From NCBI GenBank assembly GCA_002450905.1, contig DKAT01000070.1, forward strand, positions 70,097 to 134,096: 64,000 nucleotides of DNA. The letters are read 5' to 3'. The translations under genes and the position numbers were made by a program. The number at the start of each line of letters is the position of its first letter. Within the stretch, counting starts at the first letter, position 1. This document shows positions 18,200-49,882 of this stretch, one piece after another. The notes under the pieces were generated by a model. It saw nothing but the letters and a program-made list of their open reading frames with translations, was not told the DNA's origin and searched no databases. The DNA comes from Spirochaetia bacterium UBA6919 (GTDB taxonomy: Bacteria > Spirochaetota > UBA6919).

Positions 18200-18348
18200 A
18201 TATCTGACTGGGAAGGGAACACAACGAATTATCATTGATAATCTCCTTTAATTTATTAACATGCAGTTAACTTTCATCCTGCCCTCTTCATGATGGAGAG
18301 GGAGTTTCAGGGTGATAGAAGTGGGTAAGTCTTAGAGTGACACAGGAT

Positions 18349-18422
18349 TGTCATGGTGAGGTTCTCGAACCATGTTTGTACAACGCTTGTGTGTGTCCCC
18401 CTTCGAGAGCCTCAAGGTGACA
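18349..18422. repeat. nested-palindrome repeat element, copy C
   Basis: attgtcatggtgaggttctcgaaccatg...cccttcgagagcctcaaggtgacaat. The outer 7-bp inverted repeat is also complementary. Confidence 0.6.
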
Positions 18423-18569
18423 ATGGAGTAGCTCTGGGTGTGACGGAGGGAGAAATCAAGCCCTTCGACAGGGAAGGTATTCAATGCCGTGAAGAAAGAT
18501 ATTCAAATAAATGTTCTCCAAATAACGAATATTGATTATAATTATCATAACGTTATTGAATAAAGGGGT

Positions 18570-18710
18570 TTTCTTATGAAAGATTTAAGATTTAAACAGG
18601 AGTTGATGGATGAATTTAATGATTTATCAGAACAACAAATAAAAGAAGTTTTGGACTATGTTTACTTTGTCAAAGCAAGATTGACACTAGATCCTTCTCA
18701 GATGTATTTC
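18570..18710 (+). CDS. small antitoxin-like ORF (possible TA remnant)
   Basis: 46 aa, MKDLRFKQELMDEFNDLSEQQIKEVLDYVYFVKARL. It resembles the small antitoxins that pair with PIN or RelE toxins. An in-frame stop is followed by 33 more codons, and no toxin gene follows. It is below the ORF-track size cutoff. Confidence 0.3.
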
Positions 18711-18883
18711 TAGACATCCCAGTGGCAGAAGATGGAACAGGACGTCAATCAGGATAAATTATCGAATCAGATTACAGGAGATGAGATATTATGAGGGTTG
18801 TTGCCAATCACGATGATGTGTTAAAAAATCCGTGATGGGTAGAATTGTCGTCCTTCCCCTGCTCCTGGACAGCCGTGTGCTTG

Positions 18884-18975
18884 TCGCCCTTCGAGAATCT
18901 CAGGGTGAGGAGGGGGAAAATCCTGAATCAAGTTCAGGATGACAGAGAGGGCTGAAGACTCGCCCTACGGAGGAT
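18884..18975. repeat. repeat element copy D (right arm plus ctcaggatgacag / ggctgaag..gcc.tacgga submodules)
   Basis: cccttcgagaatctcagggtgagg...ttcaggatgacagagagggctgaagactcgccctacgga. Shares submodules with copies A and F. Confidence 0.5.
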
Positions 18976-19098
18976 TATGGTTTGGAGGGAAACCCGGATG
19001 GGGTTTAAGGTTGGTTTATTTGAAATAGTTTGTAAATTGTTCATGAATATGTTTAATTATATGTATATCCGTTAAGAATTATCCAACAGGAGGACGAA

Positions 19099-19299
19099 AT
19101 GTCTCAGATCCATGAAATCCAGAAGGCTGTAGAATCTCTATCCGATCAGGATTACAAGGAATTCAGGCAATGGTTTTATGATAAAGAAAATAATCGGTGG
19201 GAAGAGCAAATTAAAAGAGACTCTGAATCAGGGGTTCTCGATTTTTTAATAAAAGAAGTCCGGGAGGAAAAGAAACTGGGGAATCTGAAGGACTTATGA
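19099..19299 (+). CDS. putative antitoxin of a RelE/ParE-type TA pair
   Basis: 66-aa acidic ORF whose stop overlaps the toxin start by 4 nt (ATGA). AGGAGG RBS upstream. Confidence 0.55.
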   Translation: MSQIHEIQKAVESLSDQDYKEFRQWFYDKENNRWEEQIKRDSESGVLDFLIKEVREEKKLGNLKDL

Positions 19300-19559
19300 G
19301 GCACTTCACATCCCGACGATTCTGGAAATGCTTTAATAATCTTCCTGAACATGTTCAGGAATTGTCAAACAGGAAGTTCAATTTATTGAAGAAGAATCCA
19401 AAACATCCTTCCTTACATTTCAAGAAAATAGGATCACTGTGGTCCGTCAGGGTGGATGATCATTACAGGGCATTAGCGGTTGAAGATGAGGAGGATATGA
19501 TCTGGGTTTGGATAGGACATCATGATGAATACGAAAGATTACTGGCTGCTAGTCGGTGA
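19296..19559 (+). CDS. RelE/ParE-superfamily toxin
   Basis: 87 aa. HFKKIGSLWSVRVDDHYRALAVEDEEDMIWVWIGHHDEY is the typical RelE/StbE-family C-terminal pattern. Translationally coupled to the upstream small ORF. Confidence 0.7.
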   Translation: MRHFTSRRFWKCFNNLPEHVQELSNRKFNLLKKNPKHPSLHFKKIGSLWSVRVDDHYRALAVEDEEDMIWVWIGHHDEYERLLAASR

Positions 19560-19617
19560 TTATGGAATCATCCTTTGAGTGGATCAGGTAGGGGTTTGTT
19601 ATGGAGAGGTTACAAAC

Positions 19618-19685
19618 TGTCATGGTGAGGCTCTCGAATCCATGACTGGGTGTTGTCGCCCTTCGAGAGCCTCAGGGTGACGGGG
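19618..19685. repeat. nested-palindrome repeat element, copy E
   Basis: tgtcatggtgaggctctcgaatccatg...cccttcgagagcctcagggtgacgg, immediately upstream of the GIY-YIG gene. Confidence 0.6.
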
Positions 19686-19706
19686 GCGGGCATAAAGGAT
19701 TTTAGG

Positions 19707-19976
19707 ATGAAAACATATTCTGTTTATATTCTCCGGTGCAACGATGAAAGCTATTATACCGGGGTGACGAATGATATTGAATTGCGATTAGAAGAACATC
19801 ATCATGGAGTTGATAATAAATGTTATACCTATCCCCGACATCCTGTTCAGTTGGTGTTTTATGAGGAGTTTGGCGATATCAATGATGCGATTGGTCGGGA
19901 GAAGCAGATTAAGAAGTGGTCGAGGGCGAAGAAAGAGGCTTTGTTTAGGGGTATTATGATGGGTTGGTTCGGTTGA
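19707..19976 (+). CDS. GIY-YIG domain protein (UPF0213/YhbQ-like)
   Basis: 89 aa from the ATG at 19707 (AAAGGA RBS). YSVYILRC...YYTGVTNDIELRLEEHH...REKQIKKWSRAKK. The 5' part of the longer ORF-track frame is just repeat sequence. Confidence 0.75.
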   Translation: MKTYSVYILRCNDESYYTGVTNDIELRLEEHHHGVDNKCYTYPRHPVQLVFYEEFGDINDAIGREKQIKKWSRAKKEALFRGIMMGWFG

Positions 19977-20004
19977 GTCAGAGGTATAGTCCACAAGACG
20001 GTAG

Positions 20005-20095
20005 TCATCCTTCGAGAGCCTCAGGATGACAAGGGGAATTCAGAGTGGCAGTGAGGTGGCAAGGCTGAAGGCTTGCCATACGGAACAATATGATA
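20005..20095. repeat. repeat element copy F (collapsed hairpin form)
   Basis: gtcatccttcgagagcctcaggatgac (7-bp stem around the ttcgagagcctca core), then ggctgaaggcttgccatacgga, a submodule shared with copy D. Confidence 0.5.
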
Positions 20096-20211
20096 TGCAA
20101 ATTTTAATATTGGGTTGTGATTTTCTTATAAGTTTCTCCTGTCTTGGGTGATTTTAAAGAAAGTTTGGTGCTGTTGTTAATAATGTTTTTTTAAAATAAA
20201 TTGTTTGGAGG

Positions 20212-20789
20212 GTGCTTGATGCCTTTGTATTTTTAATTTGGAATGATAAATATCAACGGCGTTCAGGGTTTGCTCCTTTAGCTCAATGTGCTAATGATGT
20301 TTTATTATTGAGCAGGATATTTGAAAAATACTCCAAGGTGGATAAGAAGAATATTTTTGAGAATTATAATCTCACCTATGATGAATTTATTAGTCGTTTT
20401 AAGAAGTTTGTTGAGGTGGTGAAGAAAAAAAGAATTATTCTGTGATTATTACTTACAGCGGTCATGGAGATGAGGGGGGATCTCTGGTGTTTGTGGATGG
20501 GAAGCAGTATGTAGAGTATCTTGCATTTCTTGCAGAGTTGCACCCCAATCAGAGGAAACATGCTCATGAGAGGCTTAATCAACAGCCGAAGATCCTTCCA
20601 GTTCAAGAGAGAGTTGGTTTTAATGACCGGAATAATAATTTTATTCTGATTCAAAAATATATCCGGGCTAATAATATTGAGTTGAGCGCATTTGGTGGGA
20701 TCATGATGCCTGTTGGGGCTTTTTCAAGAATGTTCAGTATTTTAATATGTCTTCGATTCCCGATAATACGAAACGAGATCTCACATTGA
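20212..20789 (+). pseudogene. caspase-family (peptidase C14) gene remnant, frameshifted
   Basis: Two consecutive frames encode the caspase N-terminal half (IWNDKYQRRSGFAPLAQCANDVLLL...KKKRIIL / IITYSGHGDEGGSLVFVDGK). The frame changes at an A7 run near 20440. The catalytic Cys box is absent. Confidence 0.55.
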
Positions 20790-20833
20790 ATATAATTATT
20801 CCGTCGTTAGGACTTAAGTATAATCTATTTTAG

Positions 20834-21100
20834 ATGAAGTTTTTTTCGATGTCCTTGGGAGTCGATGCGGGTTATGCTTTCACATTTCAGAAGGTTGGGT
20901 CGTTTGGTCCTTTGAAGGAAGAGTCGAGTACGGCTTATAATTTTTATTATGGTGGTCATTTGGATTTAAAATTCGAAGTGTTTAATCAGTTTTTTATTGT
21001 AGTACCTTCGCGTTTTTTTTCAATATTATATATTGGTGAAAAACTTTATGGATTGACGTTTAAACCTGGGATTACAGTATTATTTTTAAGCGGACTGTGA
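20834..21100 (+). CDS. hypothetical fragment (possible beta-barrel C-terminal remnant)
   Basis: 88-aa ORF with alternating hydrophobic/aromatic pattern (YGLTFKPGITVLF). May be the 3' remnant of the decayed upstream gene. Confidence 0.25.
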   Translation: MKFFSMSLGVDAGYAFTFQKVGSFGPLKEESSTAYNFYYGGHLDLKFEVFNQFFIVVPSRFFSILYIGEKLYGLTFKPGITVLFLSGL

Positions 21101-21202
21101 TTTTTGTATTAGCAAGATCGATTTGATTTTTTATACTAAAGAACTCATTCTTCCAGAGATATGGATTTAATCCTGGCTGAATGAGTTTTATAATTAGATT
21201 AT

Positions 21203-24200
21203 TTATTTTGCCAACTGCTTAAAGAATTCAATGGATTTTTTATCACCCCAATTTCTTGCACCAACTGTCTTTCCTATTATCACTCCTTCTTTATTGATAA
21301 TCAGGGTAGTGGGAATTGCTGAAACACCAAACATACTTCCCAATGAGTTTCTTTGATCCAAGAATATGGGGAATGTGAAGTTTTTTGATTTTAGAAAATT
21401 CTCAACAACCGATTTTTTTTCACCGAGGGAAACAGCAAGCATTACGAAGTTATCATTTTTCATAGCTTTATGGAGTTTTTCCATTGAAGGCATTTCCTGA
21501 ACGCAGGGGGGACACCATGTTGCCCAGAAATTAAGAAATATGATTTTTCCTTTGTAATTTTTTATGGGAATATTTTTTCCATCTAGATTTGATATAACAA
21601 TATTTCCAATGGTTTGATTCATTGGGGTGATTTTGAGGGCTTTATAACTTCCCATTAATTTTGGATCGATATTTGCTAGTTCAAGACTTGATTTAGCTCC
21701 AGCTTTTTTGAGGATTTCTTTGATTTCATCAGATTTTGCAAGGTCAATAGCTGTAGATCCATTTGATAATTTAAGATTTACCTTCCCACCCTTATCAATA
21801 AGTAATTTTAATATTTCTGGGTGATTATAATGGGTTGCCATGTGAACAGGAGTCATTTGGTACCACCACTTGTTCGATACAGGGATATTTGGGTCAGCAC
21901 CAACTCCCAGAAAGATTTTAACCAGATTCAGATCCCCTTTTTGAATTGCGATGTGAAGTGGGGCAAATCCTTTTTTATTTGTAACATTAATATCAACACC
22001 ATCGGCAATTAGTTTTTTCATCAGGTCTGTATTCCCTTCATCTAATGCCTGGAAGAAACGAATAACAGGATTTTCTTTGCCGCCTGATTTTATTAGAAGT
22101 TGTTTAATTTCTTCATTTTGTGTGAGATTTAAGGGAGTGTTATCTTGTTCATCCTTCGCATTAATGGATGCCCCTTTATTGATGAGTAATTTGATAACCG
22201 GGATATTTTCATAGATGACAGCGACGTGGAGTGGTGTATACCCCCGTTTTGTGCTTTGATTCACGACAGCGCCATTTGCCAGGAGGAAAGTAACTACTTT
22301 GATATCTCCTACTTTAATTGCGATATGGAGTATGGAGACTTCCTGATCATACCAAGTTTTAGAAGGAGATTTAAATGTATAATTTTTAAGGACAGCATTG
22401 GTGTCGGATTTTTTTTGGATGAGGAGTTTAATCATTTCGCCATTTTTATTTTCAACAGCGTGGATTAAAGCTATATCACCCTGAGATCCTTTATTATTTG
22501 GGTCAGCGTCTTGTGAGAGAAGATCTTTTACATTTCCGATATTATTTTCGAGGGCTGCTTTTCTGAGTTCGAAATTAATATTGAATTTAGCCCCTGATTC
22601 TTTTAAAAGTTTTATGATATTTTTGTCTGTAGCAATATCTAATGGAGTTCTGCCTTCTTCATCCTGCTGATTTAAATTAGCATTATTTTTTAAAAGGAGT
22701 TGGGTGATTTTATAATTCTTTGAATAGACAGCGAGATGGAGAGGTGAAACATTTTTAAATAAGTATTTTTTCATGTAGGGGGTGATGTATAAATTTGTGG
22801 TTTGATTGAGATTTACATTTTTTTCGATGAGTTTTTTAACAACAGAAACTGCGTTATTTTGAATGGCTGTGAATAGAGGGGTTAATTTGGAATAACCATA
22901 GATTTCATTGACATTTGCGCCTTTATCAATTAAAAGATTTGCGGTTTTGAAGGATTTTCTTTTGATGGCTGTAATTAGCATAGGTTCATGATTTTTAGAG
23001 GGTTTATAATTTGGATCGGCGCCGTTGTTGAGGTATTCAGAGATTTTTTTGAAATTGTTTGTCGAGATCAGTTTGTATAATTCATAATTAATATTGATTT
23101 TAGCACCGGACTTCAGGAGTAATTCCTTTATGAGTAGATTCTTTGCCAGATCGATAGGTGTAGCTCCCTGGAGGTTAGTGGCATTGACGTTTATGCCTTT
23201 TTTTAAGAGGAGTTGGATGAGATCAGTATATCCATTTTGTGCAGCCCAGTGTAATAAAGTATTTCCGTATAACTTAACCTCGTGGGAAACTCCCTGATTG
23301 ATAAAGAAGATTACCATATTAGGTTTATTTCTTAACCAGGCGTAATGGATGGGATACCAGTCATTATTCATTTTGACATCAAGTCTTGCACCATTTTTGA
23401 GGAGGAATTTTGCCATTTCGACATTACCGTTATATGCTGAGACATGAAGGGGAGAGACACCATAATCAGATTGGACATCTACCTTTGCACCATGCTTGAT
23501 AAGGAGTTTTACGATTTGTTTATTATCGGTTCCAATGGCGAAGTAGATTGGTGTGAATCCAGCACTATTTCTCTTATTAACATCAGCACCTTTTGAAATG
23601 AGAAATTGTGTAATAGCAAAGCTTTTAATGGAAGCAGAAGCGTGAAGAGTGCTCCAATTTGTCGTTGATCCAAAGAATGAATGCAGATCTGTTGTTGCAT
23701 CAGCTTTGGCGCCTTTTTTAATGAGTTCCTGGACTTGTTTAAGATCATTGCTGTTAATTGCCTTGAATAATTCTTTGTTTAGATTAAGTTTAGCACCTGC
23801 ATTAACAAGAAGCTGCTGTATTTCTTTTGTTTTGGCATAGTCAACAGGTGTATTTTTATATTTATCCGAAACATTGAGATCTGCTTTGGCATTAATGAGG
23901 AGCTGAACAACCTTTGCCTGATTATTATAGACAGCGATGTGAAGTGCAGTTGTTCCATAGGAAGTCTTGGCATTGACGTTTGATCCTTTGTCAAGGAGGA
24001 ATTTTACAAGTACGACGTTTGAATTATAATTGATAGAGGAGTGGAGGGGAATCATACCATATTTATTTGTTTTGTTAAGATTTGCACCTTTCTCAAGGAG
24101 TACTTTTACAAGATCGAGTTCCCCTGTTGCTGAGGCGGTGTGGAGGGGAGTATCTCCTGAATAATTTTGGACATGGATATTTACACCTTTGTTTATGAGG

Positions 24201-27200
24201 AAGATAGCGAGGTCTTTATTTCTTTTCTGAATTGCGAGTTGAAGGAGATTTGTTTTGTATCTATCAATAATATTGATATTTGCACCATTATCAATAAGAT
24301 ATTCTGCTATGTCTCTATGATTTGATTCAACAGAATAGAATAGGGATGATTTTCCGTTTCCATCCACAACATCAATTTGGGCGTTTTTTGAAATAAGTAA
24401 TTGAACCAGATCAATATTTCCTTGTTTTGCAGCAAGATGGAGTGGAGTTTGATCTTTTGTGTAGTAAGTGCCAGATAATTTGGAATTTATTTTTGCACCG
24501 TGATCAATTAATTCTTTTGCAATTTCTAAATATCCCTTTTGGGAAGCGATGTGGAGTGGGGTCCAGTCATCTGTTATTCTGGCATTGACATCAGCTTTTT
24601 TTTGTAAGAGGAATTTAACGATATTTTTTTGACCATTATATACTGCGAAGTGAAGGGGCTGTATATTGTTATACATTTTGTAGTAGGTGAGCTTCATGTT
24701 ATTTTGTGCTGTGGTATTTACATTTAGTCCTTGATTTAATAACTTAATAACAAGTTTAGAGTTACCATCGTGGATGGCGTCGAAGAGTTCGATTACCGGA
24801 TTTGGCTTTGCACCTGCTTTTTTTAGTATAGCAATGATATAACTATTTTTAGTTAAGGATATGGGGGAGCGATCTGCTTTATTTTTAATGTTAGTATCAG
24901 CTTTATATTTAATTAACAGTTTGATGACAGGTAAATTTGAGTTTTGAACAGCATGATGGAGGGGTGTATTTTTATAATAATCTTGACTATTAATATTTAT
25001 ACCGCTATTTATAAGTAATTTTGCTATAGCAACACCTTGTGGGGACGAGAATTTTTTTTGAGAGATGGCATGCAGAGCTGATTGATCATAAGAATTTGTT
25101 GAATTGATGTCTATTCCCTTTGAAACAGCGAATTGAGCAATTCTTAGATTTTCTTTTTCAGCAGCTATGTGGAGAATATTTTTTTTGGAATATGGGATAG
25201 CTGAATTGATATCGACACCGTTTTCAATTAATATTTTAGCAATATTTAAATTTGAAAAGTACAAAGCATTTTCTATAGGAGATCTCCCATAAAAAGGTTT
25301 TTTATTTACATCTATACCTTTTTTAATAGCTTCAATGACAATCCATTTGGTGCCAGCCTGAGTAGCTGCGTGGAGGAGGTTTTCACCTCGTTTTGTTTCC
25401 ACAAGGATATTAGCACCTTTTTGATATAATAAACGGGAGATAGAAGAAAATCCGTTGTATGTTGCAAAATAGAGAGCTGTATATCCATAGTTATCTTGAT
25501 GATTAATATTTGCACCCTTATTGATCAGGTAGAGAGCAATTGACTTAGACTTATTAACGAGAGCTTCAATCAACGCGGAACGATTATTTGATGTGATGGT
25601 TTTATTAATATCTGCACCATGAGATAGGAGTAATTCAACTGTTTTTGTACTTGTACTTTTGACTGCTCTGATAAGGGGTGTGTATCCATATCCATCAACG
25701 ACATCTACTTTAACCCCTTTATCTAAAAATAATTTAACAATTTTAGTATATCCGTAGAATGCGGCAATATGGATGGGTTGCCATTTTGCGTAATCTCCTT
25801 CAGTATGGATATTCGCACCATTATTTACAAGATATTGCACTAGTTGATAATTTCCGGAATAGACAGCATCGTGCAGAGGAGTTTTATTGTAAGTTGTTTT
25901 GGAATTTATATCAAAACCCATGCTCAGTAATTTTTTAACCAGATCAAGATTTCCTGAATTTGCGGCATCGTGAAGGAGATTTCGGTTTCCGTAATAAGTG
26001 GTTTTGGTTTCTACCTTATATTGCATGAGAATGTTAATAATTTTTGTCAAATTGTATTGTACAGCAACTTTAATGGGGCTTGTCTTGTATCTATCGACGA
26101 TATTAGGATTCGCACCATGAGATAGGAGGAATTGAACCATTTCAGGTTTGTTGTGCTTAACTGCAAGGATGAGTGGAGATTCACCATTTTGAGTCAGGCT
26201 GTTCACATCAAAATCATTTTTAAGCAGATATTGTGCGATTTTAATGCTTCCACTTTCAGCTGAGAAATGCAGAGCGTTAAAACCCTGATTATTGGTGTCT
26301 TTGAGTGGAACACCTTTTTTTAATAATAATTTAAGGAGGTCAAAATTACCACTCTTAGCGGAAATATGAATCAAATTGTTATTGAAAAGGTATTTAAAAT
26401 CAATTTTGCCACCCTTCTCGATAAGGTATTTTGTGATTTCATAATTTCCATTTTGTACAGCGAGGCTGAGTGGGGTTTCACCGGGTTGAAAGTTTTTACC
26501 AAGGACTCTATAATAACTTGTGGATTTTAAGTTAATATCAAGGCCTTTTTGAACAAATTGCTTTACCAGTTTGAGATTATTGGTAATAACAGCCGTGTGG
26601 AGAGGTGACCATTGGAAACGGGTTGGATCTATCTTAGCACCCCGACTTAACAAATAATTGACTATATGAATATGATTATGCTGAACAGCGAAATCCAGAG
26701 GGCTTGCGGTATTATTATCAATACCATTTATATTAAAACCCTTTTTTAAGAGGTACTTTACAAACCATAGTGATCCTCCTGAACAGGCTGAGTGGAGAAG
26801 AGAATAGGATCTTTGATTGTTTGCATCTATGACAGCACCCATTTTGATAAGATATTTTATAGAATTGAGTTTATTGAAATCAGCCGCTGCCTGGAGGGGT
26901 GTGTATCCGTTGTTATCCTGCACATTGATATTGGCACCAATTTTAATCAGATAGGAAATAAGCCAGTGCAAATTGCCTCCTGCAGCTGAGTGCATCAGGG
27001 TAAGCCCTCTTGCATCTTTTGCCCAGATATTGGCATTTTTACGGATAAGTAATCGGACGATATCACTATGTCCCTGTTCAGCAGCAATTAAAAGAGGGGT
27101 GGAGTGAATGGGATATTCGTATTTAGTAGAAATTGCGAAATAATATTTTGATTTGGCGTCGACATTTGCACCGGATTCAATAAGATAATTTGCTATATCG

Positions 27201-27403
27201 TATCCACCATAATAAGATACCCAGTGAAGTGGAGTCCATCCTTTTTTATCAAATGAATTTACGTCATAATCATTTTCAACAAGAATACTTTTAACCTGAG
27301 TGAGAGACTTATTTTTAATAGCTTGTATAAGATTATCCTCTGGTTTAGCCCAGGTGATGGCAGTGATCAATAACAACAGGATTACAGGTAGGATGCGTTT
27401 CAT
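21203..27403 (-). CDS. giant secreted ankyrin-repeat protein with C-terminal TlpA-like thioredoxin domain
   Basis: 2066 aa. Cleavable signal peptide MKRILPVILLLLITAITWA. Then more than 50 tandem about-33-aa ankyrin units (TPLHxAxxxGHxxxVxxLLxxGA). The final about 150 aa are a thiol:disulfide oxidoreductase domain with WATWCPPC (FLNFWATWCPPCVQEMP). AAGGAG RBS. Confidence 0.88.
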   Translation of the reverse strand: MKRILPVILLLLITAITWAKPEDNLIQAIKNKSLTQVKSILVENDYDVNSFDKKGWTPLHWVSYYGGYDIANYLIESGANVDAKSKYYFAISTKYEYPIHSTPLLIAAEQGHSDIVRLLIRKNANIWAKDARGLTLMHSAAGGNLHWLISYLIKIGANINVQDNNGYTPLQAAADFNKLNSIKYLIKMGAVIDANNQRSYSLLHSACSGGSLWFVKYLLKKGFNINGIDNNTASPLDFAVQHNHIHIVNYLLSRGAKIDPTRFQWSPLHTAVITNNLKLVKQFVQKGLDINLKSTSYYRVLGKNFQPGETPLSLAVQNGNYEITKYLIEKGGKIDFKYLFNNNLIHISAKSGNFDLLKLLLKKGVPLKDTNNQGFNALHFSAESGSIKIAQYLLKNDFDVNSLTQNGESPLILAVKHNKPEMVQFLLSHGANPNIVDRYKTSPIKVAVQYNLTKIINILMQYKVETKTTYYGNRNLLHDAANSGNLDLVKKLLSMGFDINSKTTYNKTPLHDAVYSGNYQLVQYLVNNGANIHTEGDYAKWQPIHIAAFYGYTKIVKLFLDKGVKVDVVDGYGYTPLIRAVKSTSTKTVELLLSHGADINKTITSNNRSALIEALVNKSKSIALYLINKGANINHQDNYGYTALYFATYNGFSSISRLLYQKGANILVETKRGENLLHAATQAGTKWIVIEAIKKGIDVNKKPFYGRSPIENALYFSNLNIAKILIENGVDINSAIPYSKKNILHIAAEKENLRIAQFAVSKGIDINSTNSYDQSALHAISQKKFSSPQGVAIAKLLINSGININSQDYYKNTPLHHAVQNSNLPVIKLLIKYKADTNIKNKADRSPISLTKNSYIIAILKKAGAKPNPVIELFDAIHDGNSKLVIKLLNQGLNVNTTAQNNMKLTYYKMYNNIQPLHFAVYNGQKNIVKFLLQKKADVNARITDDWTPLHIASQKGYLEIAKELIDHGAKINSKLSGTYYTKDQTPLHLAAKQGNIDLVQLLISKNAQIDVVDGNGKSSLFYSVESNHRDIAEYLIDNGANINIIDRYKTNLLQLAIQKRNKDLAIFLINKGVNIHVQNYSGDTPLHTASATGELDLVKVLLEKGANLNKTNKYGMIPLHSSINYNSNVVLVKFLLDKGSNVNAKTSYGTTALHIAVYNNQAKVVQLLINAKADLNVSDKYKNTPVDYAKTKEIQQLLVNAGAKLNLNKELFKAINSNDLKQVQELIKKGAKADATTDLHSFFGSTTNWSTLHASASIKSFAITQFLISKGADVNKRNSAGFTPIYFAIGTDNKQIVKLLIKHGAKVDVQSDYGVSPLHVSAYNGNVEMAKFLLKNGARLDVKMNNDWYPIHYAWLRNKPNMVIFFINQGVSHEVKLYGNTLLHWAAQNGYTDLIQLLLKKGINVNATNLQGATPIDLAKNLLIKELLLKSGAKININYELYKLISTNNFKKISEYLNNGADPNYKPSKNHEPMLITAIKRKSFKTANLLIDKGANVNEIYGYSKLTPLFTAIQNNAVSVVKKLIEKNVNLNQTTNLYITPYMKKYLFKNVSPLHLAVYSKNYKITQLLLKNNANLNQQDEEGRTPLDIATDKNIIKLLKESGAKFNINFELRKAALENNIGNVKDLLSQDADPNNKGSQGDIALIHAVENKNGEMIKLLIQKKSDTNAVLKNYTFKSPSKTWYDQEVSILHIAIKVGDIKVVTFLLANGAVVNQSTKRGYTPLHVAVIYENIPVIKLLINKGASINAKDEQDNTPLNLTQNEEIKQLLIKSGGKENPVIRFFQALDEGNTDLMKKLIADGVDINVTNKKGFAPLHIAIQKGDLNLVKIFLGVGADPNIPVSNKWWYQMTPVHMATHYNHPEILKLLIDKGGKVNLKLSNGSTAIDLAKSDEIKEILKKAGAKSSLELANIDPKLMGSYKALKITPMNQTIGNIVISNLDGKNIPIKNYKGKIIFLNFWATWCPPCVQEMPSMEKLHKAMKNDNFVMLAVSLGEKKSVVENFLKSKNFTFPIFLDQRNSLGSMFGVSAIPTTLIINKEGVIIGKTVGARNWGDKKSIEFFKQLAK

Positions 27404-27647
27404 AGATACTCCTTAATAATACGTTTCATTTTTTTCATTTAAATAATATAACAGATAATTATGATTTGTCATTAAAAAATTATCAATTCATGATATTAAT
27501 ATATAAATTATAATATTTAATTGATTTAATATAACTATAGATCTTGTTATGTCCATGTTTCCTGTATAATTTAGTTAATCTTTTCTGTTGAAATAATTTA
27601 TATCGGATGTACACTGAAAATCTTCTGATTTTGAAATATCCAACGAA

Positions 27648-27671
27648 TGGTTCGACTCCGCTCACCAACCG
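27648..27671. repeat. 24-nt conserved element cggttggtgagcgNagNcgaacca (reverse orientation), copy 1 of 2
   Basis: Its reverse complement matches 55681-55706 at 22 of 24 positions. Both copies lie in 3' intergenic regions of convergent genes. It forms an imperfect inverted repeat (ggttgg / ccgaacc). Confidence 0.45.
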
Positions 27672-27760
27672 AATTAGAAGTTATTGGTATATATGGAAAT
27701 TGGTATTAAATATTTTGTGAATTGTCGTTGAATAGTCTATTCTTTGTTCAAATGAGGAAT

Positions 27761-30700
27761 TTACTGAGGAATCAATACCTCGTCCTCGTCTTCATCAATA
27801 TTTTTAGACTTAAATCGGGATTGAATTTCATCAAACAGGTCATAAACCACGGGAACTACTATGAGAGTCAGAAACAGAGAGCTCATTAATCCACCAATAG
27901 TAGCAACAGCCATAGGAGCACGGCTTTCAGCCCCTTCACCTGTTGCGAGTGCTATAGGAAGCATACCAAATACCATTGCCATGGTAGTCATTAGGATAGG
28001 TCTAAGTCTCACAGGTCCTGCCTTTAAAATAGCTTCTTTACGCTCCATTCCCTGGTTTCTAAGGGTATTGGTATAGTCTACAAGCAGGATAGCATTCTTC
28101 TTCACTAAACCCATTAATAGAATAAGTCCAATATAACTGTAAATATTCAGGGTCATGTTGGCAAGATATAGAGCACCAAAGGCACCAATAAATGAAAATG
28201 GCATGGAGAGTAGAATAGTAAAGGGATGAATAAAACTTTCAAACTGGGATGCCAGTATCATATAGGCTAGGATGATTCCAAGGATTAATGCGAAATAGAG
28301 GTATTGGAAGGATTCAGACATCAGCTCAGCACTTCCCTTGTATCGACCCGAGTAACCGAAAGATAGGACATTTGATAGGATCTTATCCAATTCTTGTTTA
28401 GCTTGTCCAAGGGTCTTTCCTTCAAGATTGGCAAATAGAGTGATGGCTCTCTGTCGATCTACGCGATTTATGACATTGGGACCACCTGTTTCTTTAATGT
28501 CTATAATGTTTTGTAGTTTAATCAATCTGTTATCATTGGATCTTACGTAAATTTGTTCAATATCTTTTGGATCACTCCGATCTTTATGGAACAGCCTTAC
28601 GCGTACATCATACCGCCTTCCCTTCCTCTCATCCTTGTATTTCGTAATATCAACTTCTCCACCTATAAGGAAATTAATAGCTTCACCAATAGTTGCGGCG
28701 TTTATAGATAGATCAGCAGCTTTATCACGATTTATAAATACTCTTAGTTCTGGTTTACCCGATTTTAGTGAGGTATCAATATCTACAAATCCCTTTATCT
28801 TTCTGACTTCAGCTGATATTTTTTTTGTAAGATGCTCTAATACTTTCAGATCTATGCCTCTTATACTTAGTTGTATCGGCACCTGGCGTTCTTGTCCTTC
28901 ACCGGCAAAAGAGGTAACATCTTCAGCACTTGCTTTCAATCCTACAATATTATTTAGTTTCTTTCTTACAATAGATTTTAATTCATCCTGATATCTTTTA
29001 CGCTGAATCTTTGGGGTGAGTGTGACAAACATAGTCGCTTTGTTAATTTCACCCTGATTTGTCCCCAAACTATAGAATACAGATTTGACTTCCGGTAATG
29101 ATTTAAGATAATTCTCTACTTTATTAAACATTTTATCGGACTGATCGATGGAATAGTCAATAGGGGCCTCCAAACGAATTATAAAAGATCCCTGATCTTC
29201 AGGTGGAATGAGTTCTTTTCCGATAAAATTGGTGAGATAGAGGCTTAGTATGAATATAATAATGGTGCATGTGATAACAATTATTCTATGACGCAATGCC
29301 AAGTCAAGGGTCTTTCGGTACATATTTTCTAGTAAGAAATATGGTTTTTCAATGAGATCAGATATTTTACCAATCAATGTTTTATGGTAACTAGGGTCGC
29401 TATGATGTGTTCTTTTAAGGAATTTTGATGATAACATCGGTGTAAGTGTGAATGAAACAAATAATGAGAACATTACAGAGAAAACTACAGTGAGGGCAAA
29501 CTGTAGGAAAAATCGTCCGATCATCCCTTTCATAAAAGCCACAGGGAGGAATATAGCTACAACAGCCATTGTGGTTGCCATAACCGCTAAACCGATTTCG
29601 GATGTAGCTTTTGAAGAAGCTTCTTTTGGGGATAGACCTGTTTCAATATGCCTGTGGATATTCTCAATCACAATGATAGCATCGTCAATCAATATTCCAA
29701 TTGAGAGGGAGAGAGCTAGCATGGTCATATCGTTGAATGTGAAATTAAAGAAATATATCATATAGAATGTTGCTATAACAGATGTAGGGATGGCAAGGGC
29801 ACTAATAAGAGTAATACGAAAACTTTTTAAAAATAATAGAACAGCTAATGCAGCAAAGATTCCACCGTATATTAGATGTGTTTTTACTTCATTGATAGAA
29901 CGCTGTATAAATGTAGATTGGTCAAAACTAATGTCAATAGCCATTCCTGGTGGTAATGTTGTTTTTATGTTTTCCAGTTCTTTCTTTACTAATTTTATTA
30001 CAGCAACAGTATTTGTACCAGACTGCTTTTGAACACCAAGTGCCACAGTAGTTTTCCCATTGAAACGAGCGATGGACCTCTTCTCTTCCATAGAATCTTC
30101 TGCTCTACCGACATCTTGGATACGAATTGGCGTACCCTTGTCATATCCTATGATGAGTTCATTGAATTGTTGTGGGGATCGAAATTCTCCCTTGATTTTG
30201 ATACCGTATTCCTTTGTCTTACTTTCAATTCGTCCACCAGGTAATTCAATATTTTCTTTAGATAAGGCATTTGATATATCCTGAGCTGTAATTTGGTGGG
30301 CTGATAATTTATCAATACTAAGCCATATTCTAACTTGTCTGAGTCGAAGACCTGATAATTGAATAGCACCTACACCATTTATTCTTTGAATCTTGTTTTT
30401 AAGGACTTCATCAGCATAAGTTGATAGATCACGCACGGATTTTCGACCAGTTAGATTTAACCAGAGTATAGGGGTTGCGTCTGGATCGACCTTTTGGATA
30501 ATTGGCTCAAGGATATCTTTGGGTAGTAAGGAACGAATGGAAGAAACTTTTTCCCGGACATCTTGTACAGAAAGATCAATATTTCTCTCTAAGATAAATT
30601 CTATTGTGATAACAGATGTTTCTTCTGTACTACTTGAAGATATACTCTTGACACCGTTTATAGTATTTACAGCTTCTTCAATCTTGTCTGTAACATCAAT

Positions 30701-30880
30701 ATCCATGATCTCCGGGCTTGCACCTTTGAGTGTCGTTGTAATGGTGACCATTGGATAATCTACTTTCGGGTACAGATCAAGACCAATATCTGGGTAACTG
30801 ACAACACCAAGTATGACAAGGGATGCTATCATCATCGTTGCAAAGACAGGCCTTTTAATAGAAGTATCAGCTAACCACAT
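27761..30880 (-). CDS. RND efflux transporter permease (HAE1/AcrB family), pump 2
   Basis: 1039 aa, 12-TM architecture with two large periplasmic loops, and RND motifs throughout. About 60% identical to the upstream paralog. Confidence 0.9.
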   Translation of the reverse strand: MWLADTSIKRPVFATMMIASLVILGVVSYPDIGLDLYPKVDYPMVTITTTLKGASPEIMDIDVTDKIEEAVNTINGVKSISSSSTEETSVITIEFILERNIDLSVQDVREKVSSIRSLLPKDILEPIIQKVDPDATPILWLNLTGRKSVRDLSTYADEVLKNKIQRINGVGAIQLSGLRLRQVRIWLSIDKLSAHQITAQDISNALSKENIELPGGRIESKTKEYGIKIKGEFRSPQQFNELIIGYDKGTPIRIQDVGRAEDSMEEKRSIARFNGKTTVALGVQKQSGTNTVAVIKLVKKELENIKTTLPPGMAIDISFDQSTFIQRSINEVKTHLIYGGIFAALAVLLFLKSFRITLISALAIPTSVIATFYMIYFFNFTFNDMTMLALSLSIGILIDDAIIVIENIHRHIETGLSPKEASSKATSEIGLAVMATTMAVVAIFLPVAFMKGMIGRFFLQFALTVVFSVMFSLFVSFTLTPMLSSKFLKRTHHSDPSYHKTLIGKISDLIEKPYFLLENMYRKTLDLALRHRIIVITCTIIIFILSLYLTNFIGKELIPPEDQGSFIIRLEAPIDYSIDQSDKMFNKVENYLKSLPEVKSVFYSLGTNQGEINKATMFVTLTPKIQRKRYQDELKSIVRKKLNNIVGLKASAEDVTSFAGEGQERQVPIQLSIRGIDLKVLEHLTKKISAEVRKIKGFVDIDTSLKSGKPELRVFINRDKAADLSINAATIGEAINFLIGGEVDITKYKDERKGRRYDVRVRLFHKDRSDPKDIEQIYVRSNDNRLIKLQNIIDIKETGGPNVINRVDRQRAITLFANLEGKTLGQAKQELDKILSNVLSFGYSGRYKGSAELMSESFQYLYFALILGIILAYMILASQFESFIHPFTILLSMPFSFIGAFGALYLANMTLNIYSYIGLILLMGLVKKNAILLVDYTNTLRNQGMERKEAILKAGPVRLRPILMTTMAMVFGMLPIALATGEGAESRAPMAVATIGGLMSSLFLTLIVVPVVYDLFDEIQSRFKSKNIDEDEDEVLIPQ

Positions 30881-30948
30881 TGGTTTAATTCCTTGGACTT
30901 AAAGTAGAATTTGTGATTTTAGGATGACATTTTGAAATGGATTTCATT

Positions 30949-33900
30949 TTAATTGTCCTTTACAGATTGCTTTCTTAAGGATTTTACCCATTGAATCCCT
31001 GAATCGAATAGATCATAAACAACAGGAATAACAATTAGAGTTAGGAATAGAGAGCTGATCAGACCACCTATAGTTGTAACAGCCATAGGAGCACGGGTTT
31101 CAGCCCCTTCGCCAATACCAATAGCTATTGGAAGCATTCCAAAGATCATTGCTATAGTAGTCATTAAAATTGGTTTGAGTCGAACAGGACCTGCATGAAT
31201 TATAGCCTCTCTTCTTTCCATTCCCTGGGATCTTAGGGTATTTGTATAATCAACCAATAGAATAGCATTCTTTTTAACAAGACCCATTAATAGGATTAGC
31301 CCTATAAAACTAAATATATTGAGTGTCATTCCTGCAATTAAAAGAGCTGTAAAGGCTCCTATAAATGAAAATGGCATAGATAATAGTATAGTAAAGGGAT
31401 GAATAAAACTACCAAACTGGGATGCCAGTATCATATAAGCCATCACTATACCTAATACAATTGCAAACATGAGATATTGGAAGGATTCAGCCATTCGCTC
31501 TGATCTTCCCCTGAATTTACCAGTGTATTCCCTTGTAAGAACTTTACCCATAATTGATTTTACCTGTTCCATAGCCTCTCCAAGGGGCTTATTATCCAGA
31601 TTTGCATATAACATAATTGCTCTTTGGCGATCCGCACGGCTAATCAGATTAGGACCTCCCGTTTCTTTAATATCAACAATGCTGGATAGCTCTATGAGAC
31701 GACCATCATTTGAGCGTACATAGATATTTTTAATATCCAGTGGATTCATTCTATCTTTTTGATAAAGGCGCATACGAACATCATATCTTCTTCCCCGTTT
31801 CTCATCCTTATATTTTGTAACATCTACTTCTCCACCAATAAGGAGATTAATGGCTTCAGTAACTGTGGATATATTAACGCCAAGATCAGCTGCTTTATCA
31901 CGATTTACATAAACTCTCAATTCAGGCTTACCCTGCTGAATAGAAGTATCAATATCAACAAAACCAGGTATCTTCGATATTCGTTTAACGATATTATTTG
32001 TATGTTTTTGTAAAACTGTCAAATCAGGTCCTTTGATGTTTACCTGGACAGGAACTTGTCTTAAACCACCACCCAACATAGAAACATCTTCTGCAGTAGC
32101 TTTCAATCCAGTAATTGGAATTAACTTTAGTCTGATTTCCTTTTTTAACTGCTCTTGATTTTTTTTCCTTTGTGATTTTGGTATAAATGTGATATACATA
32201 GTTCCTTTATTAATGTCACCCTGGTCAAGCCCAAGTCCATAAAATGCAGTTTTAATCTCAGGAAAAGATTTCAGGTATTTTTCAACTCTTTTGAACATCT
32301 TATCTGATTCTTCTATTGAATAGTCGATAGGAGCCTCTAATCTGAGGATAATAGTACCTTGGTCCTCAGGTGGAATGAATTCTTTACCAATAAATTTTGT
32401 CATATACATACTGAAAGCGAAAATTCCAATAGCCAGCAACACTACAATTGCTCTATGTCTTAGAGCATATATCAATATATGTTTGTATACCTTTTCCATA
32501 ATTAAATAAGGCTTATCAAGCCAGTCAGATATTTGCTTCAGTCGCCATTTAATAGTTCCTGGGGTGTAATTATGTCTTATTTTAAGGAATTTTGCAGCTA
32601 GCATTGGTGTTAGTGTAAATGAAATTAAGAGTGAAACAGATACCGCGAAAACGACTGTTAGGGCAAATTGCATAAAGAATCTTCCAATCATCCCTTTCAT
32701 GAAACCGACTGGTAAAAATATTGCTACAACAGCAAGAGTTGTTGCCATAACAGCTAGACCTATTTCTGAAGTGGCAATCAGTGCCGCTTTTTTGGGAGGA
32801 ATACCCATTTCCATGTGTCGATGGATGTTTTCAATAACGATAATAGCATCATCGATGAGAATACCTATTGAGAGAGTGAGTGCAAGCATACTCATATTGT
32901 TAAATGTGAATTTAAAGATATAAATTATGAAAAATGTGGCAATTATAGAAGTTGGGATGGCTAGGGCACTAATTAATGTAATTCGGATATTTTTTAAGAA
33001 TAAAAATACAGCTAGTGCAGCAAAGAATCCTCCGTATACAAGGTGATGTTTTACCTCATTGATAGAACGTTTTATAAATACAGATTGATCAAAACTAATA
33101 CTAATTGACATTCCAGGAGGTAAGACTTTTTGTATATTTGTTAATTCTGATTTTATCCGATCTACAATCTCGACAGTGTTTGATCCAGACTGTTTTTGAA
33201 TACCAAGTGCAATGGCTGGTTCCCCATTGAAACGGGCAATAGACCTCATTTCTTCCTTAGAATCCTCTGCACGTCCAACATCCTTCAGTTTGACAGGAGT
33301 TCCATTAAAATAACCCAGGATAAGTTCATTAAATTCCTGAGGTGAATTGAATTCCCCTTTTACCTTAATGGAATATTCTTTTGTTTGAGTTTCTATACGA
33401 CCACCTGGCAATTCTACATTTTCCCGTTTGAGAGCACGAGCAACATCCTGAGCAGTGATTTTATATGCTGTGAGCTTAGTAGTGTTTAATGAGACTCTAA
33501 TCTGTCTTCGTCTTATACCGGCCATTTGAATAGCCCCTACTCCCTGTATCTTTTGTATTTGGCTACTCAGAATTTCATCGGCATAAGTTGAAAGATCACG
33601 AACAGATTTCCGACCAGTTAGATTTAACCAAAGTACTGGAACAGCATCTGGATCAACCTTCATAATAACTGGTTCCAGGATATCGGATGGTAACTGGGAT
33701 CGAATTATTGATATTTTCTCACGAACGTCCTGTACAGCTTGATCAATGTTACGTTCTAAAAAGAATTCTATGATGACAGCAGATTTTCCTTCTATACTAT
33801 TTGATGAAATGCTATTCACACCGTTTATTGTGCTAACAGCTTCTTCTATTTTATCTGTGATATCAACATCCATGATTTCTGGACTTGCTCCTTTAAGAAC

Positions 33901-34047
33901 AGTCGTTACAGTGACGACCGGAACATCTACCTTTGGGAATAAATCTACGCCTATACTTGGATAGCTTACAATTCCAAGTGTGACAAGGGATGCAATCATC
34001 ATTGTAGCAAATACTGGACGTTTGATTGAGATTTCAGCAAGTAACAT
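30949..34047 (-). CDS. RND efflux transporter permease, pump 1
   Basis: 1032 aa paralog of the downstream pump. AAGGGA RBS. Lies 4 nt after the fusion-protein gene. Confidence 0.9.
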   Translation of the reverse strand: MLLAEISIKRPVFATMMIASLVTLGIVSYPSIGVDLFPKVDVPVVTVTTVLKGASPEIMDVDITDKIEEAVSTINGVNSISSNSIEGKSAVIIEFFLERNIDQAVQDVREKISIIRSQLPSDILEPVIMKVDPDAVPVLWLNLTGRKSVRDLSTYADEILSSQIQKIQGVGAIQMAGIRRRQIRVSLNTTKLTAYKITAQDVARALKRENVELPGGRIETQTKEYSIKVKGEFNSPQEFNELILGYFNGTPVKLKDVGRAEDSKEEMRSIARFNGEPAIALGIQKQSGSNTVEIVDRIKSELTNIQKVLPPGMSISISFDQSVFIKRSINEVKHHLVYGGFFAALAVFLFLKNIRITLISALAIPTSIIATFFIIYIFKFTFNNMSMLALTLSIGILIDDAIIVIENIHRHMEMGIPPKKAALIATSEIGLAVMATTLAVVAIFLPVGFMKGMIGRFFMQFALTVVFAVSVSLLISFTLTPMLAAKFLKIRHNYTPGTIKWRLKQISDWLDKPYLIMEKVYKHILIYALRHRAIVVLLAIGIFAFSMYMTKFIGKEFIPPEDQGTIILRLEAPIDYSIEESDKMFKRVEKYLKSFPEIKTAFYGLGLDQGDINKGTMYITFIPKSQRKKNQEQLKKEIRLKLIPITGLKATAEDVSMLGGGLRQVPVQVNIKGPDLTVLQKHTNNIVKRISKIPGFVDIDTSIQQGKPELRVYVNRDKAADLGVNISTVTEAINLLIGGEVDVTKYKDEKRGRRYDVRMRLYQKDRMNPLDIKNIYVRSNDGRLIELSSIVDIKETGGPNLISRADRQRAIMLYANLDNKPLGEAMEQVKSIMGKVLTREYTGKFRGRSERMAESFQYLMFAIVLGIVMAYMILASQFGSFIHPFTILLSMPFSFIGAFTALLIAGMTLNIFSFIGLILLMGLVKKNAILLVDYTNTLRSQGMERREAIIHAGPVRLKPILMTTIAMIFGMLPIAIGIGEGAETRAPMAVTTIGGLISSLFLTLIVIPVVYDLFDSGIQWVKSLRKQSVKDN

Positions 34048-34051
34048 CTTG

Positions 34052-35164: not shown

Positions 35165-35205
35165 AGACTTATTTAACCCTTATTATAAAGATATTTTTAT
35201 ATATT

Positions 35206-36579: not shown

Positions 36580-36626
36580 ATATTTTTATACCACGAATCA
36601 TTCTTCAATAATAGATATAATAAATT

Positions 36627-49857: not shown

Positions 49858-49882
49858 CACAATATCGACAACGAGGTTCCCA

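Follow-up and report, generated by a model that had tools for sequence, protein, structure and literature searches.

A giant spirochaetal ankyrin-repeat protein with a C-terminal TlpA-like thioredoxin domain

Bacterial envelopes contain many TlpA-like reductases, most of them without an identified client; binding domains built into such an enzyme would offer a direct route to its clients. What, then, is encoded by a gene in which a TlpA-like domain follows about 1900 residues of ankyrin repeats? The gene in question occupies positions 21203 to 27403 on the minus strand of a 64-kb stretch of DNA from a little-known Spirochaetota lineage (the window). It was delimited by reading of the open reading frame, Pfam matches and composition, and consists of an ATG start, 2066 codons and a stop, with 0 internal stops. 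The mature product would have a mass of ~228 kDa and a pI of 9.6, making it strongly basic.

The gene and its assembly

An open frame of 6.2 kb in DNA of 35% G+C excludes a chance origin, and the GC3 of the gene (0.31, versus 0.26-0.34 in neighbouring genes) marks it as native. A strong Shine-Dalgarno sequence, AAGGAG, can be read directly at 27409-27414 (minus strand), with the ATG 6 nt downstream. Beyond it, an AT-rich region (27416-27555, minus strand), lying within a 357-bp gap after an RND efflux operon, contains several σ70-like hexamer pairs, such as TGGACA-16-TATATT and ATGACA-16-TATATT with TG. Judged by these consensus matches only, the region may be the gene's own promoter.

Long repeat proteins are a known risk in short-read metagenome bins, and the earlier note had named two ways in which this one might mislead: the thioredoxin segment could have been joined to the array by a missed stop or frameshift, or the length of the array could be an artefact of assembly. 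A collapsed, expanded or chimeric array is, however, difficult to reconcile with the DNA. Even the best pairs of repeats match at just 60-80% of positions over 40-65 nt, there are no near-identical copies, and TRF finds no tandem array in the DNA beyond one 16-nt microrepeat. At the protein level the ankyrin modules are just 25-37% identical to one another. Because the repeats are so diverged at the DNA level, the array is unlikely to have collapsed or expanded, and an assembly artefact is unlikely. An independent Logan assembly made with a second assembler agrees at 100% identity, with 0 mismatches over 9765 bp; the same reads may underlie both assemblies, but the frame is continuous in each, as expected of one gene rather than two. 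The junction of ankyrin C-cap, linker and thioredoxin domain is also kept in seven smaller homologues from other organisms, which argues against an accidental fusion, and a genuine gene would be expected to have the Shine-Dalgarno site, signal peptide and native codon composition seen here. The artefact explanation is largely refuted, and we give it hardly any credence.

Signal peptide, ankyrin domains and thioredoxin domain

In the N-terminus, MKRILPVILLLLITAITWA followed by KPEDN, a basic n-region is combined with a hydrophobic core of 15 residues, and the T-W-A site fits the -3/-1 rule, in agreement with the signal peptide proposed in the earlier note. By this rule-based reading, residues 1-19 (27347-27403, minus strand) form a Sec-type signal peptide with predicted cleavage at TWA/KP. 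Since the signal region contains no Cys, the protein is not a lipoprotein. Cysteine is rare throughout; there are only 3 in the 2066 residues, and 2 of them make up the CPPC active site described below.

The Pfam models Ank, Ank_2, Ank_3, Ank_4 and Ank_5 match the protein from about residue 30 to 1900 with E values of 1e-188 to 1e-284. A custom repeat HMM yields 51 matches, and manual segmentation that includes cap units gives 56 ankyrin units, bearing out the claim of more than 50. The units have the defining features of ankyrin repeats: they are arranged in tandem, are ~33 residues long, carry the TPLH-type motif and form helix-turn-helix pairs throughout the AF2 models. Segmentation and structural models do not, however, support the description of the array as an almost uninterrupted run; it is divided into six discrete capped domains of 25, 10, 7, 5, 5 and 4 units, and adjacent domains are connected by junctions of six residues. 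All are encoded on the minus strand. Segmentation defines M1 (residues 21-868, 24800-27343), which consists of an N-cap, 23 internal units and a 30-residue C-cap, and M2 (residues 869-1207, 23783-24799), whose 10 units include the caps. For M3 (7 units, residues 1208-1437, 23093-23782), M4 (5 units, residues 1438-1608, 22580-23092) and M5 (5 units, residues 1609-1778, 22070-22579), segmentation is joined by AF2 models, in which M5 carries a β-hairpin insertion at about residues 1670-1690. M6 (4 units, residues 1779-1906, 21686-22069) is also defined by homologue alignment and is the counterpart of the single ankyrin domain in the smaller fusions. That the modules are so dissimilar to each other indicates that they are old and individually maintained.

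The junctions between domains appear to be ordered in the models, with pLDDT values of 83-95 at M3/M4, M4/M5 and M5/M6 and a pTM of 0.68 over 699 residues, the arrangement of the domains being read from AlphaFold confidence values only. In Foldseek comparisons the best local matches to the ankyrin part are engineered, rigid DARPin-DARPin fusions, on which pairs of modules superpose with a TMt of ~0.8 and an rmsd of 3.1-3.5 Å. AnkB and NOMPC are also among the matches, but the ankyrin part superposes badly on the continuous AnkB superhelix as a whole (rmsd 27 Å, TMq 0.42). The 33-residue helix-turn-helix unit and the TPLH motif are common to all of these proteins. Ankyrin-B/R, with 24 repeats, and NOMPC, with 29, are nevertheless eukaryotic and cytoplasmic, and the DARPin fusions are synthetic, whereas the spirochaetal protein is bacterial, predicted to be exported and split into capped domains. 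If the models are correct, it shows in nature what protein engineers have built as DARPin-DARPin fusions, namely capped ankyrin domains rigidly linked in series.

A linker of residues 1907-1934 (21602-21685, minus strand; pLDDT 68-84 in AF2, delimited also by homologue alignment) leads to the thioredoxin-fold domain, residues 1935-2066 (21206-21601, minus strand), which Pfam, NCBIfam and structure comparison place in the TlpA/ResA-like family. Over residues 1935-2057, Redoxin (PF08534) scores 85.4 bits (E 4e-24, cut-off 26.6) and AhpC-TSA (PF00578) 84.3 bits (E 9e-24, cut-off 26); Thioredoxin_8 scores 65 bits against a cut-off of 27. Thus, both domain types sought by the earlier note, Ank and AhpC-TSA/Redoxin, are found above the Pfam cut-offs. 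In NCBIfam, ResA, TlpA and StoA score best, all below their cut-offs (120.3 versus 170, 90.2 versus 230 and 84.1 versus 210 bits, respectively; the ResA and TlpA models are NF002854 and NF047696), indicating that the domain is a family member without being orthologous to any characterised enzyme.

Motif and fold agree with these scores. The sequence WATWCPPCVQ was verified at 21497-21526, and the active site, C1964-P-P-C1967, lies at 21503-21514 on the minus strand, as judged from the sequence and its alignment. It is followed by V-Q-E1970, in which E1970 is the equivalent of ResA Glu80. The stretch W-C1964-P-P-C1967-V-Q-E1970 aligns with WCEPCKKE of ResA and WCPPCREE of 3kcm, and AIP2031TT, the cis-Pro loop, with PLPTT of ResA. 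Among solved structures the closest by sequence is 3kcm (E 2e-32), an uncharacterised Geobacter metallireducens protein that also contains WATWCPPC; ResA (1e-27) and TlpA (6e-18) follow. AF2 models the domain with pLDDT 95-98, and the model matches 3kcm with a TMt of 0.90-0.92 and an rmsd of 1.4-1.5 Å (Foldseek). It shows the two additions that characterise the TlpA family, an extra N-terminal β-hairpin (strands preceding β1, at residues 328-331 and 336-338 of the modelled fragment) and a central helical insert (389-399). The proposed C-terminal TlpA-like thioredoxin with a WCPPC motif is therefore borne out by Pfam scores, motif and fold model.

The domain thus shares with ResA and StoA of B. 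subtilis, TlpA of Bradyrhizobium and CcmG/DsbE the thioredoxin fold with its hairpin and insert, a WCxxC at the start of helix 1, a Glu three residues past the second Cys, the cis-Pro loop and an N-terminal hydrophobic export signal, here predicted. These enzymes, however, are single-domain, membrane-anchored proteins of 140-220 residues, whereas here the domain comes after ~1900 ankyrin residues and the signal is apparently cleavable. A peroxiredoxin (AhpC/TSA sensu stricto) was considered and rejected; there is no PxxxTxxC, LNFWATWC carrying Leu and Ala at -7 and -3, respectively, and the cysteines form a CxxC of the thioredoxin type. The domain matches models of thiol peroxidase and GPx with E values of only 1e-3 to 1e-5.

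Smaller fusions and neighbouring ankyrin genes

The earlier note held that this architecture had not been described. A literature search found no paper on ankyrin and redoxin fusions, but the proteins themselves are present in public databases, in two phyla, labelled 'redoxin domain-containing protein' or 'ankyrin repeat protein/peroxiredoxin'. They are small (403-473 residues) and consist of a signal peptide, one ankyrin domain, a linker and a TlpA domain. P0001-P0003, of 403 residues, come from Spirochaetes MAGs, and P0004, P0005, P0023 and P0052, of 468-473 residues, from Bacteroidota-type contigs with T9SS and Gld markers. All seven have a predicted signal peptide, as the giant does, and the same C-cap/linker/thioredoxin junction. 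In giant and small fusions alike, a capped ankyrin domain with the short C-cap TPLD[IL]A...LL..G is followed by ~25-35 linker residues, and the TlpA-like domain contains WATWCxPC..EMPS. The two kinds differ in the CxxC dipeptide (PP in the giant, LP or GP in the small fusions) and in the number of ankyrin domains, which is one, of ~6-8 units, in the small fusions and six, of 56 units, in the giant.

The small fusions are 30-37% identical to the last 287 residues of the giant, across 95-97% of this stretch. Its thioredoxin domain is 47-49% identical to those of the small Spirochaetota fusions and ~50% identical to stand-alone TlpA proteins; since the former value is no higher than the latter, a common origin of the fusions is not proven. 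The homologue search of the databases found no second giant version. The giant is an extreme form of a rare, uncharacterised enzyme type and not a new kind of system, and with an ordinary catalytic domain and smaller fusions already in the databases, it overturns no concept. The small, one-domain proteins probably embody the basic unit, a single binding domain coupled to one reductase, of which the giant would be a multivalent elaboration.

Within the window, the five other ankyrin genes or remnants reported previously were all located, at 37316-38653 (minus strand) and, on the plus strand, at 47989-49272, 49814-50640 (frameshifted), 50450-51295 and 59372-59902 (fragmented). Their products have signal peptides or lipobox-like sequences together with the N-cap and C-cap motifs of the giant. 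This combination of predicted export and shared caps points to a lineage-specific exported ankyrin family, and together with the giant these paralogues document its expansion in this lineage, an expansion that had been proposed in the earlier note. NCBIfam models of Legionella Dot/Icm Ank effectors (AnkY, AnkH and others) were rejected as matches because the similarity is confined to the repeats and falls below the cut-offs. AnkY reaches 595 bits (cut-off 600), a total built up from 19 repeat stretches that all align within profile positions 457-540, and the other models are far below their cut-offs.

Possible function

The gene probably encodes an extracytoplasmic TlpA-like thiol-disulfide oxidoreductase, most likely a reductase, in which the usual membrane anchor has given way to a signal peptide that can be cleaved off and a string of ankyrin domains. 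The best reading is that the ankyrin domains would recruit clients or anchor the reductase in the envelope, with location, redox direction and clients all inferred. The unfolded chain would be exported by Sec and cut by signal peptidase I after TWA. In the periplasm it is predicted to fold into the six capped domains, set head to tail through their apparently ordered junctions in the manner of a natural DARPin-DARPin fusion, with the thioredoxin domain tethered by the semi-flexible linker of ~28 residues. Family knowledge suggests that a CcdA/DsbD/ScsB-type electron shuttle in the membrane, with its gene elsewhere, would keep Cys1964 and Cys1967 reduced; neither a CcdA/DsbD gene nor one for cytochrome-c maturation is found in the 64-kb window, which, unlike the setting of TlpA-like relatives, offers no cytochrome-maturation or Sco/Cox context. 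Ankyrin grooves would bind one or several clients or an envelope structure, and the tethered CPPC would then reduce client disulfides or keep client cysteines reduced. Such a fusion would show specificity bolted onto a generic reductase. The roles floated in the earlier note, redox-active effector or envelope scaffold, are speculative.

Could the protein instead be a secreted or surface-exposed 'eukaryotic-like protein' effector, whose ankyrins bind host or prey proteins while the thioredoxin reduces disulfides on the target cell surface? Counting that of the strongly basic giant, the 64 kb contain at least six ankyrin genes or remnants for exported proteins, and the frameshifted paralogues point to birth-and-death evolution, as is typical of host-associated bacteria. 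Two of the paralogues have lipobox-like sequences, and spirochaetal lipoproteins of this kind can be surface-exposed. A Sec signal alone, however, stops at the periplasm in a diderm, and the window contains no dedicated secretion system or host-association marker. The nearest thioredoxin domains belong to ordinary periplasmic TlpA proteins of free-living anaerobes, and the Legionella effector matches are repeat-only, so that we consider this role rather unlikely. Improbable, in our view, is a chaperone-like 'chaperedoxin', isomerase or oxidase, with ankyrins acting as holdases for unfolded envelope proteins while the CPPC protects or reshuffles their cysteines. Its appeal lies in the coupling of a thioredoxin-fold module to a protein-binding repeat or partner domain that directs redox chemistry at clients, as in CnoX/YbbN, where a TPR domain is the scaffold, and the N-terminal domain of Neisseria PilB; CnoX, however, is cytoplasmic, has TPR rather than ankyrin repeats, carries its thioredoxin at the N-terminus and is related in sequence only at the level of the fold, making the likeness an analogy. 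Two further ankyrin proteins are in line with this reading. Pseudomonas AnkB is required for full KatB catalase activity. The periplasmic ankyrin protein Tli is reported to act on another protein (bioRxiv 10.1101/2023.03.28.534661). The redox direction is not fixed by sequence, but all close relatives in sequence and structure are TlpA/ResA/StoA-type reductases, and the ResA-like Glu at +3 is retained. Moreover, the usual ligands of folded ankyrin grooves are specific folded proteins or peptides rather than unfolded chains in general.

Very improbable is a mainly structural role as a spacer, spring or tether like the arrays of NOMPC and ankyrin-B, with the thioredoxin as a covalent or redox-switchable attachment point. 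The 25 units of M1 are comparable to spring-like arrays of 24-29 repeats, the junctions are predicted to be ordered, and both eukaryotic proteins appear among the structural matches; the poor global fit to AnkB speaks against it, as do the small homologues, which keep the same fusion with 6-8 repeats, too few for a spacer. A bolder version of the client-targeted reductase is offered more tentatively: ankyrin-TlpA fusions could form a distinct cross-phylum class of extracytoplasmic reductases directed to clients, with the giant as a natural 'multi-DARPin' redox hub, in which six different, rigidly concatenated binding domains would keep a polymeric structure, or several clients from the envelope or a host, near one tethered CPPC. 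In that case its ankyrin array would rank among the largest known from bacterial polypeptides.

The gene neighbourhoods of the small fusions contain no informative neighbour common across subfamilies; the sole recurrent one is a gene for a 212-residue OMP β-barrel, found in one Bacteroidota subgroup.

Authenticity of the giant gene

The giant ankyrin-thioredoxin protein is encoded by a single open frame of 2066 codons, which begins with ATG and occupies 21203..27403 of the minus strand. A Shine-Dalgarno sequence, AAGGAG, can be read 6 nt 5' of the start codon (27409-27414, minus strand), within an AT-rich gap of 357 bp located 3' of an efflux cluster on the same strand. The N-terminus of the product, MKRILPVILLLLITAITWA/KPEDN, has n-, h-, and c-regions as in a Sec signal peptide and is free of Cys. 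Pfam ankyrin families extend over approximately residues 30-1900 (E values of 1e-188 to 1e-284), and Redoxin, AhpC-TSA, and Thioredoxin_8 match residues 1935-2057, well over the Pfam gathering scores. All the elements described in the earlier note (the long coding sequence, the ankyrin array and thioredoxin domain, and the signal-peptide-like N-terminus) are therefore present. The mature protein has a computed mass of ~228 kDa and a pI of 9.6. There are three Cys residues: C207 and the active-site pair, C1964 and C1967.

That note also raised the possibility of an artefact, arising from a stop missed ahead of the thioredoxin part or from a collapsed or expanded repeat array. Several lines of evidence argue against this idea. 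The window comes from a 145,627-bp NCBI contig; a second, independent assembly (Logan, run SRR5324714) encodes the same 2066-residue product, with 0 mismatches to the window across 9765 bp (window 20639-30403). Tandem Repeats Finder detects a 16-nt microrepeat in the gene and nothing else, while direct repeats fall into families of 40-65 nt with a mere 60-80% identity. The six ankyrin domains of the protein, M1-M6, share 25-37% pairwise identity and are no closer to each other than to ankyrin domains of other organisms. The GC3 of the gene (0.31) matches that of its neighbours (0.26-0.34), indicating that the gene is native. Finally, independent homologues conserve the way in which the last ankyrin unit is joined to the thioredoxin domain. 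Thus, an artefact is largely excluded, and the giant is a real, unusual gene. Recent tandem amplification of the array was rejected as well. The Logan contig ends at window 20639.

A probable chain of capped ankyrin domains

A repeat HMM built from the giant itself gives 51 matches, and the count rises to 56 units once degenerate cap units are added. These units had been described as an almost uninterrupted run, a picture that does not hold, since the array is not uniform. A 28-residue N-cap (consensus ELFxAIxxxNxxxVxxLLxxGADxN), which lacks the TPLH hairpin, and a shortened 30-residue C-cap (TPLDLAKxxEIKxLLxxAGAKxN) both recur, and together delimit six domains: M1 (residues 21-868, 25 units), M2 (869-1207, 10 units), M3 (1208-1437, 7 units), M4 (1438-1608, 5 units), M5 (1609-1778, 5 units), and M6 (1779-1906, 4 units). 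A linker of 28 residues (1907-1934) connects M6 to the C-terminal thioredoxin domain (1935-2066).

AlphaFold2 models were obtained for M3-M6 (699 aa, pLDDT 90.2, pTM 0.68) and for M5-M6-linker-thioredoxin (458 aa, pLDDT 89.4, pTM 0.65). The three module junctions have pLDDT values of 83-95, and in the models the last C-cap helix and the first N-cap helix lie only six residues apart. Low pLDDT is limited to insertion loops, the free N-terminal cap in the M5-M6-linker-thioredoxin model, and part of the linker (68-84). In a comparison with the PDB, module pairs locally match engineered rigid DARPin-DARPin fusions best (TMt ~0.8, rmsd 3.1-3.5 Å). An alignment with the 24-repeat superhelix of ankyrin-B covers 756 columns, yet has an rmsd of 27 Å and a TMq of 0.42. 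Judged from these confidence values and fold matches, the capped domains would follow one another as a chain, with predicted junctions that are ordered and probably kinked, and would not form one continuous solenoid.

The two other intact ankyrin proteins of the window share the N-cap and C-cap motifs of the giant and likewise have export signals. The 445-aa ankyrin protein (37316-38653, minus strand) has an N-terminal signal peptide. The two-module 427-aa ankyrin protein (47989-49272, plus strand) has a lipobox-like start, LLNTC, and is followed by a tandem paralogue (49814-51295, plus strand) that is split over three frames (49814-50257, 50182-50640, and 50450-51295) and hence carries two frameshifts, reflecting either a pseudogene or sequencing error. 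In this pair, the lipobox-like LLNTC or LLNAC precedes SSPEDKLF(R/Q)AVRENNLNQVKQLL, and the C-terminal end is TPLDLATDKKIRELLLKHGAKSGKKIK; the modules of the giant are bounded by these cap motifs too. An ankyrin gene remnant in three frames (59372-59902, plus strand) is similar to the 50450-51295 product in the C-terminal half of the latter and has the same C-cap (...KLLIKRGAKPGKKIR). The shared export signals and cap motifs point to membership of the giant in a family of modular, exported ankyrin proteins that is specific to this lineage and shows gene birth and decay. The remnant is flanked by genes for a Uma2-family endonuclease (58666-59238, plus strand) and a 774-aa CHAT-domain (caspase-like) protein (60625-62949, plus strand).

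The TlpA-like domain and its small fusion relatives

Among NCBIfam models, ResA (120 bits), TlpA (90 bits), and StoA (84 bits) score best with the thioredoxin domain, all under their orthologue cut-offs. By sequence, its best matches among solved structures are 3kcm, an uncharacterised thioredoxin-family protein of Geobacter in which the WATWCPPC motif is identical (E 2e-32); 1st9 and related entries of B. subtilis ResA (E 1e-27); 3erw, StoA (E 4e-21); and 1jfu, TlpA (E 6e-18). In the alignment, W-C-P-P-C is followed at +3 by Glu, at the position of ResA Glu80, and the cis-proline loop (AIPTT) is present. The modelled domain superimposes on 3kcm with an rmsd of 1.4-1.5 Å. Identity as a peroxiredoxin was rejected, as the PxxxTxxC motif is absent. 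Given the intact motif set, the 3kcm fold match, and the missing peroxiredoxin motif, the domain is an ordinary and apparently competent TlpA-like family member without a characterised orthologue.

The last 287 residues of the giant, used as a query, retrieved seven clusters of small proteins of 403-473 aa (95-97% query cover, 29-37% identity), all with ankyrin and redoxin Pfam domains. In these small fusions, a signal peptide is followed by a single capped ankyrin domain of ~6-8 units ending in a short C-cap as in the giant, a linker of ~25-35 residues, and a thioredoxin domain with WATWCxPC..EMPS. P0001-P0003 form one group, found in Spirochaetes MAGs. Another (P0004, P0005, P0023, P0052, and the partial P0248) is assigned to Bacteroidota because its contigs carry T9SS and gliding markers; one record of this group is annotated as 'ankyrin repeat protein/peroxiredoxin'. 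The earlier statement that the architecture is undescribed thus stands for the literature, in which our search found no paper on an ankyrin-TlpA fusion, and fails for public databases, where the seven clusters already reside.

In its thioredoxin domain, the giant shares 47-49% identity with P0001-P0003, a level equalled by the best stand-alone TlpA proteins, and 31-38% with the fusions of the Bacteroidota group; these figures are compatible with either one or several fusion events. At 90% clustering, the giant is a singleton. A phmmer search of 1.84 billion representatives with residues 1877-2066 revealed no second giant among the best 150 matches, which comprise the giant itself, multi-TlpA tandem proteins, stand-alone TlpA proteins, and P0003. 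No orthologue was found in JGI metagenome contigs using M5-M6-linker (two chance ankyrin matches only). Among the matches listed from a search of 185,579 species genomes (GTDB) with the last 287 residues, limited by the pattern NFWATWCP, there was no giant orthologue; those listed (L002-L081) are stand-alone TlpA genes only and are not a measure of fusion frequency. A junction profile search, which did not recover the already known small fusions, added one new partial fusion, P0248, below top matches to tandem double-TlpA proteins. The giant is best classed as an extreme variant of a TlpA-like reductase-ankyrin fusion that is itself present, yet uncharacterised, in databases.

Multi-TlpA proteins are frequent among the best matches listed from the 1.84-billion-protein representative set, and among P0362-P0504 are proteins in which 2-5 TlpA-like domains stand in tandem, some of them 1000-2900 aa in length. 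No conserved gene neighbours of the small fusions were found across subfamilies. In the loci of P0052 and P0023, a subgroup within the Bacteroidota fusions, a divergently transcribed 212-aa gene lies immediately upstream of the fusion (L084, 7165-7803; L087, 7153-7791). OMP_b-brl_2 is the family of the copies in L087 and L088; for the one in L084, no Pfam match is recorded.

Proposed function and genomic setting

In the TlpA, ResA, CcmG, and Etrx systems, a CcdA/DsbD-type shuttle reduces a Cys pair that acts on extracytoplasmic disulfides. By analogy, the CPPC pair of the giant would be kept reduced by such a membrane shuttle and would reduce disulfides of specific extracytoplasmic clients. 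The ankyrin part may provide client recognition or anchoring, as suggested by the general roles of ankyrin domains and by the minimal homologues, which have exactly one binding-sized ankyrin domain per reductase. The giant could then be a multivalent version of the one-domain fusion.

What is established for the giant is the domain order, the intact catalytic motif set, the signal-peptide-like N-terminus, the conservation of the fusion, and the ordered junctions in models. Alternatively, the protein might be a secreted effector aimed at host or prey, a CnoX-like chaperedoxin or isomerase, or a structural spacer. Identity as a Legionella-type Ank effector was rejected. The giant is not conceptually disruptive. 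Its interest lies in the handle that it offers on the client specificity of reductases and in its being a multi-domain ankyrin construct made by nature.

Directly upstream of the giant gene, 27761-37115 of the minus strand encodes a MarR regulator, an outer-membrane efflux protein/factor, a membrane-fusion protein, and two tandem AcrB-type RND pumps. The intervening 357 bp contain promoter-like sites and no called terminator; the giant gene may be co-transcribed with the pump cluster. No CcdA/DsbD or cytochrome-c maturation genes lie within the 64-kb window, and an Rfam scan of the window gave no matches. Other products encoded there include Rnf subunits, SecDF, two-component sensors, an MCP, the CHAT protein, and PurL, whose best match, at 73% identity, comes from a 'Spirochaetota bacterium' MAG. 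On the downstream side of the giant gene, window 18300-21100 holds small genes only: a ParE-like toxin (19296-19559) preceded by a 66-aa partner (19099-19299), a GIY-YIG nuclease-domain protein (19650-19976), and a caspase-like 'SGHGDEGG' fragment with no Pfam match (20442-20789).
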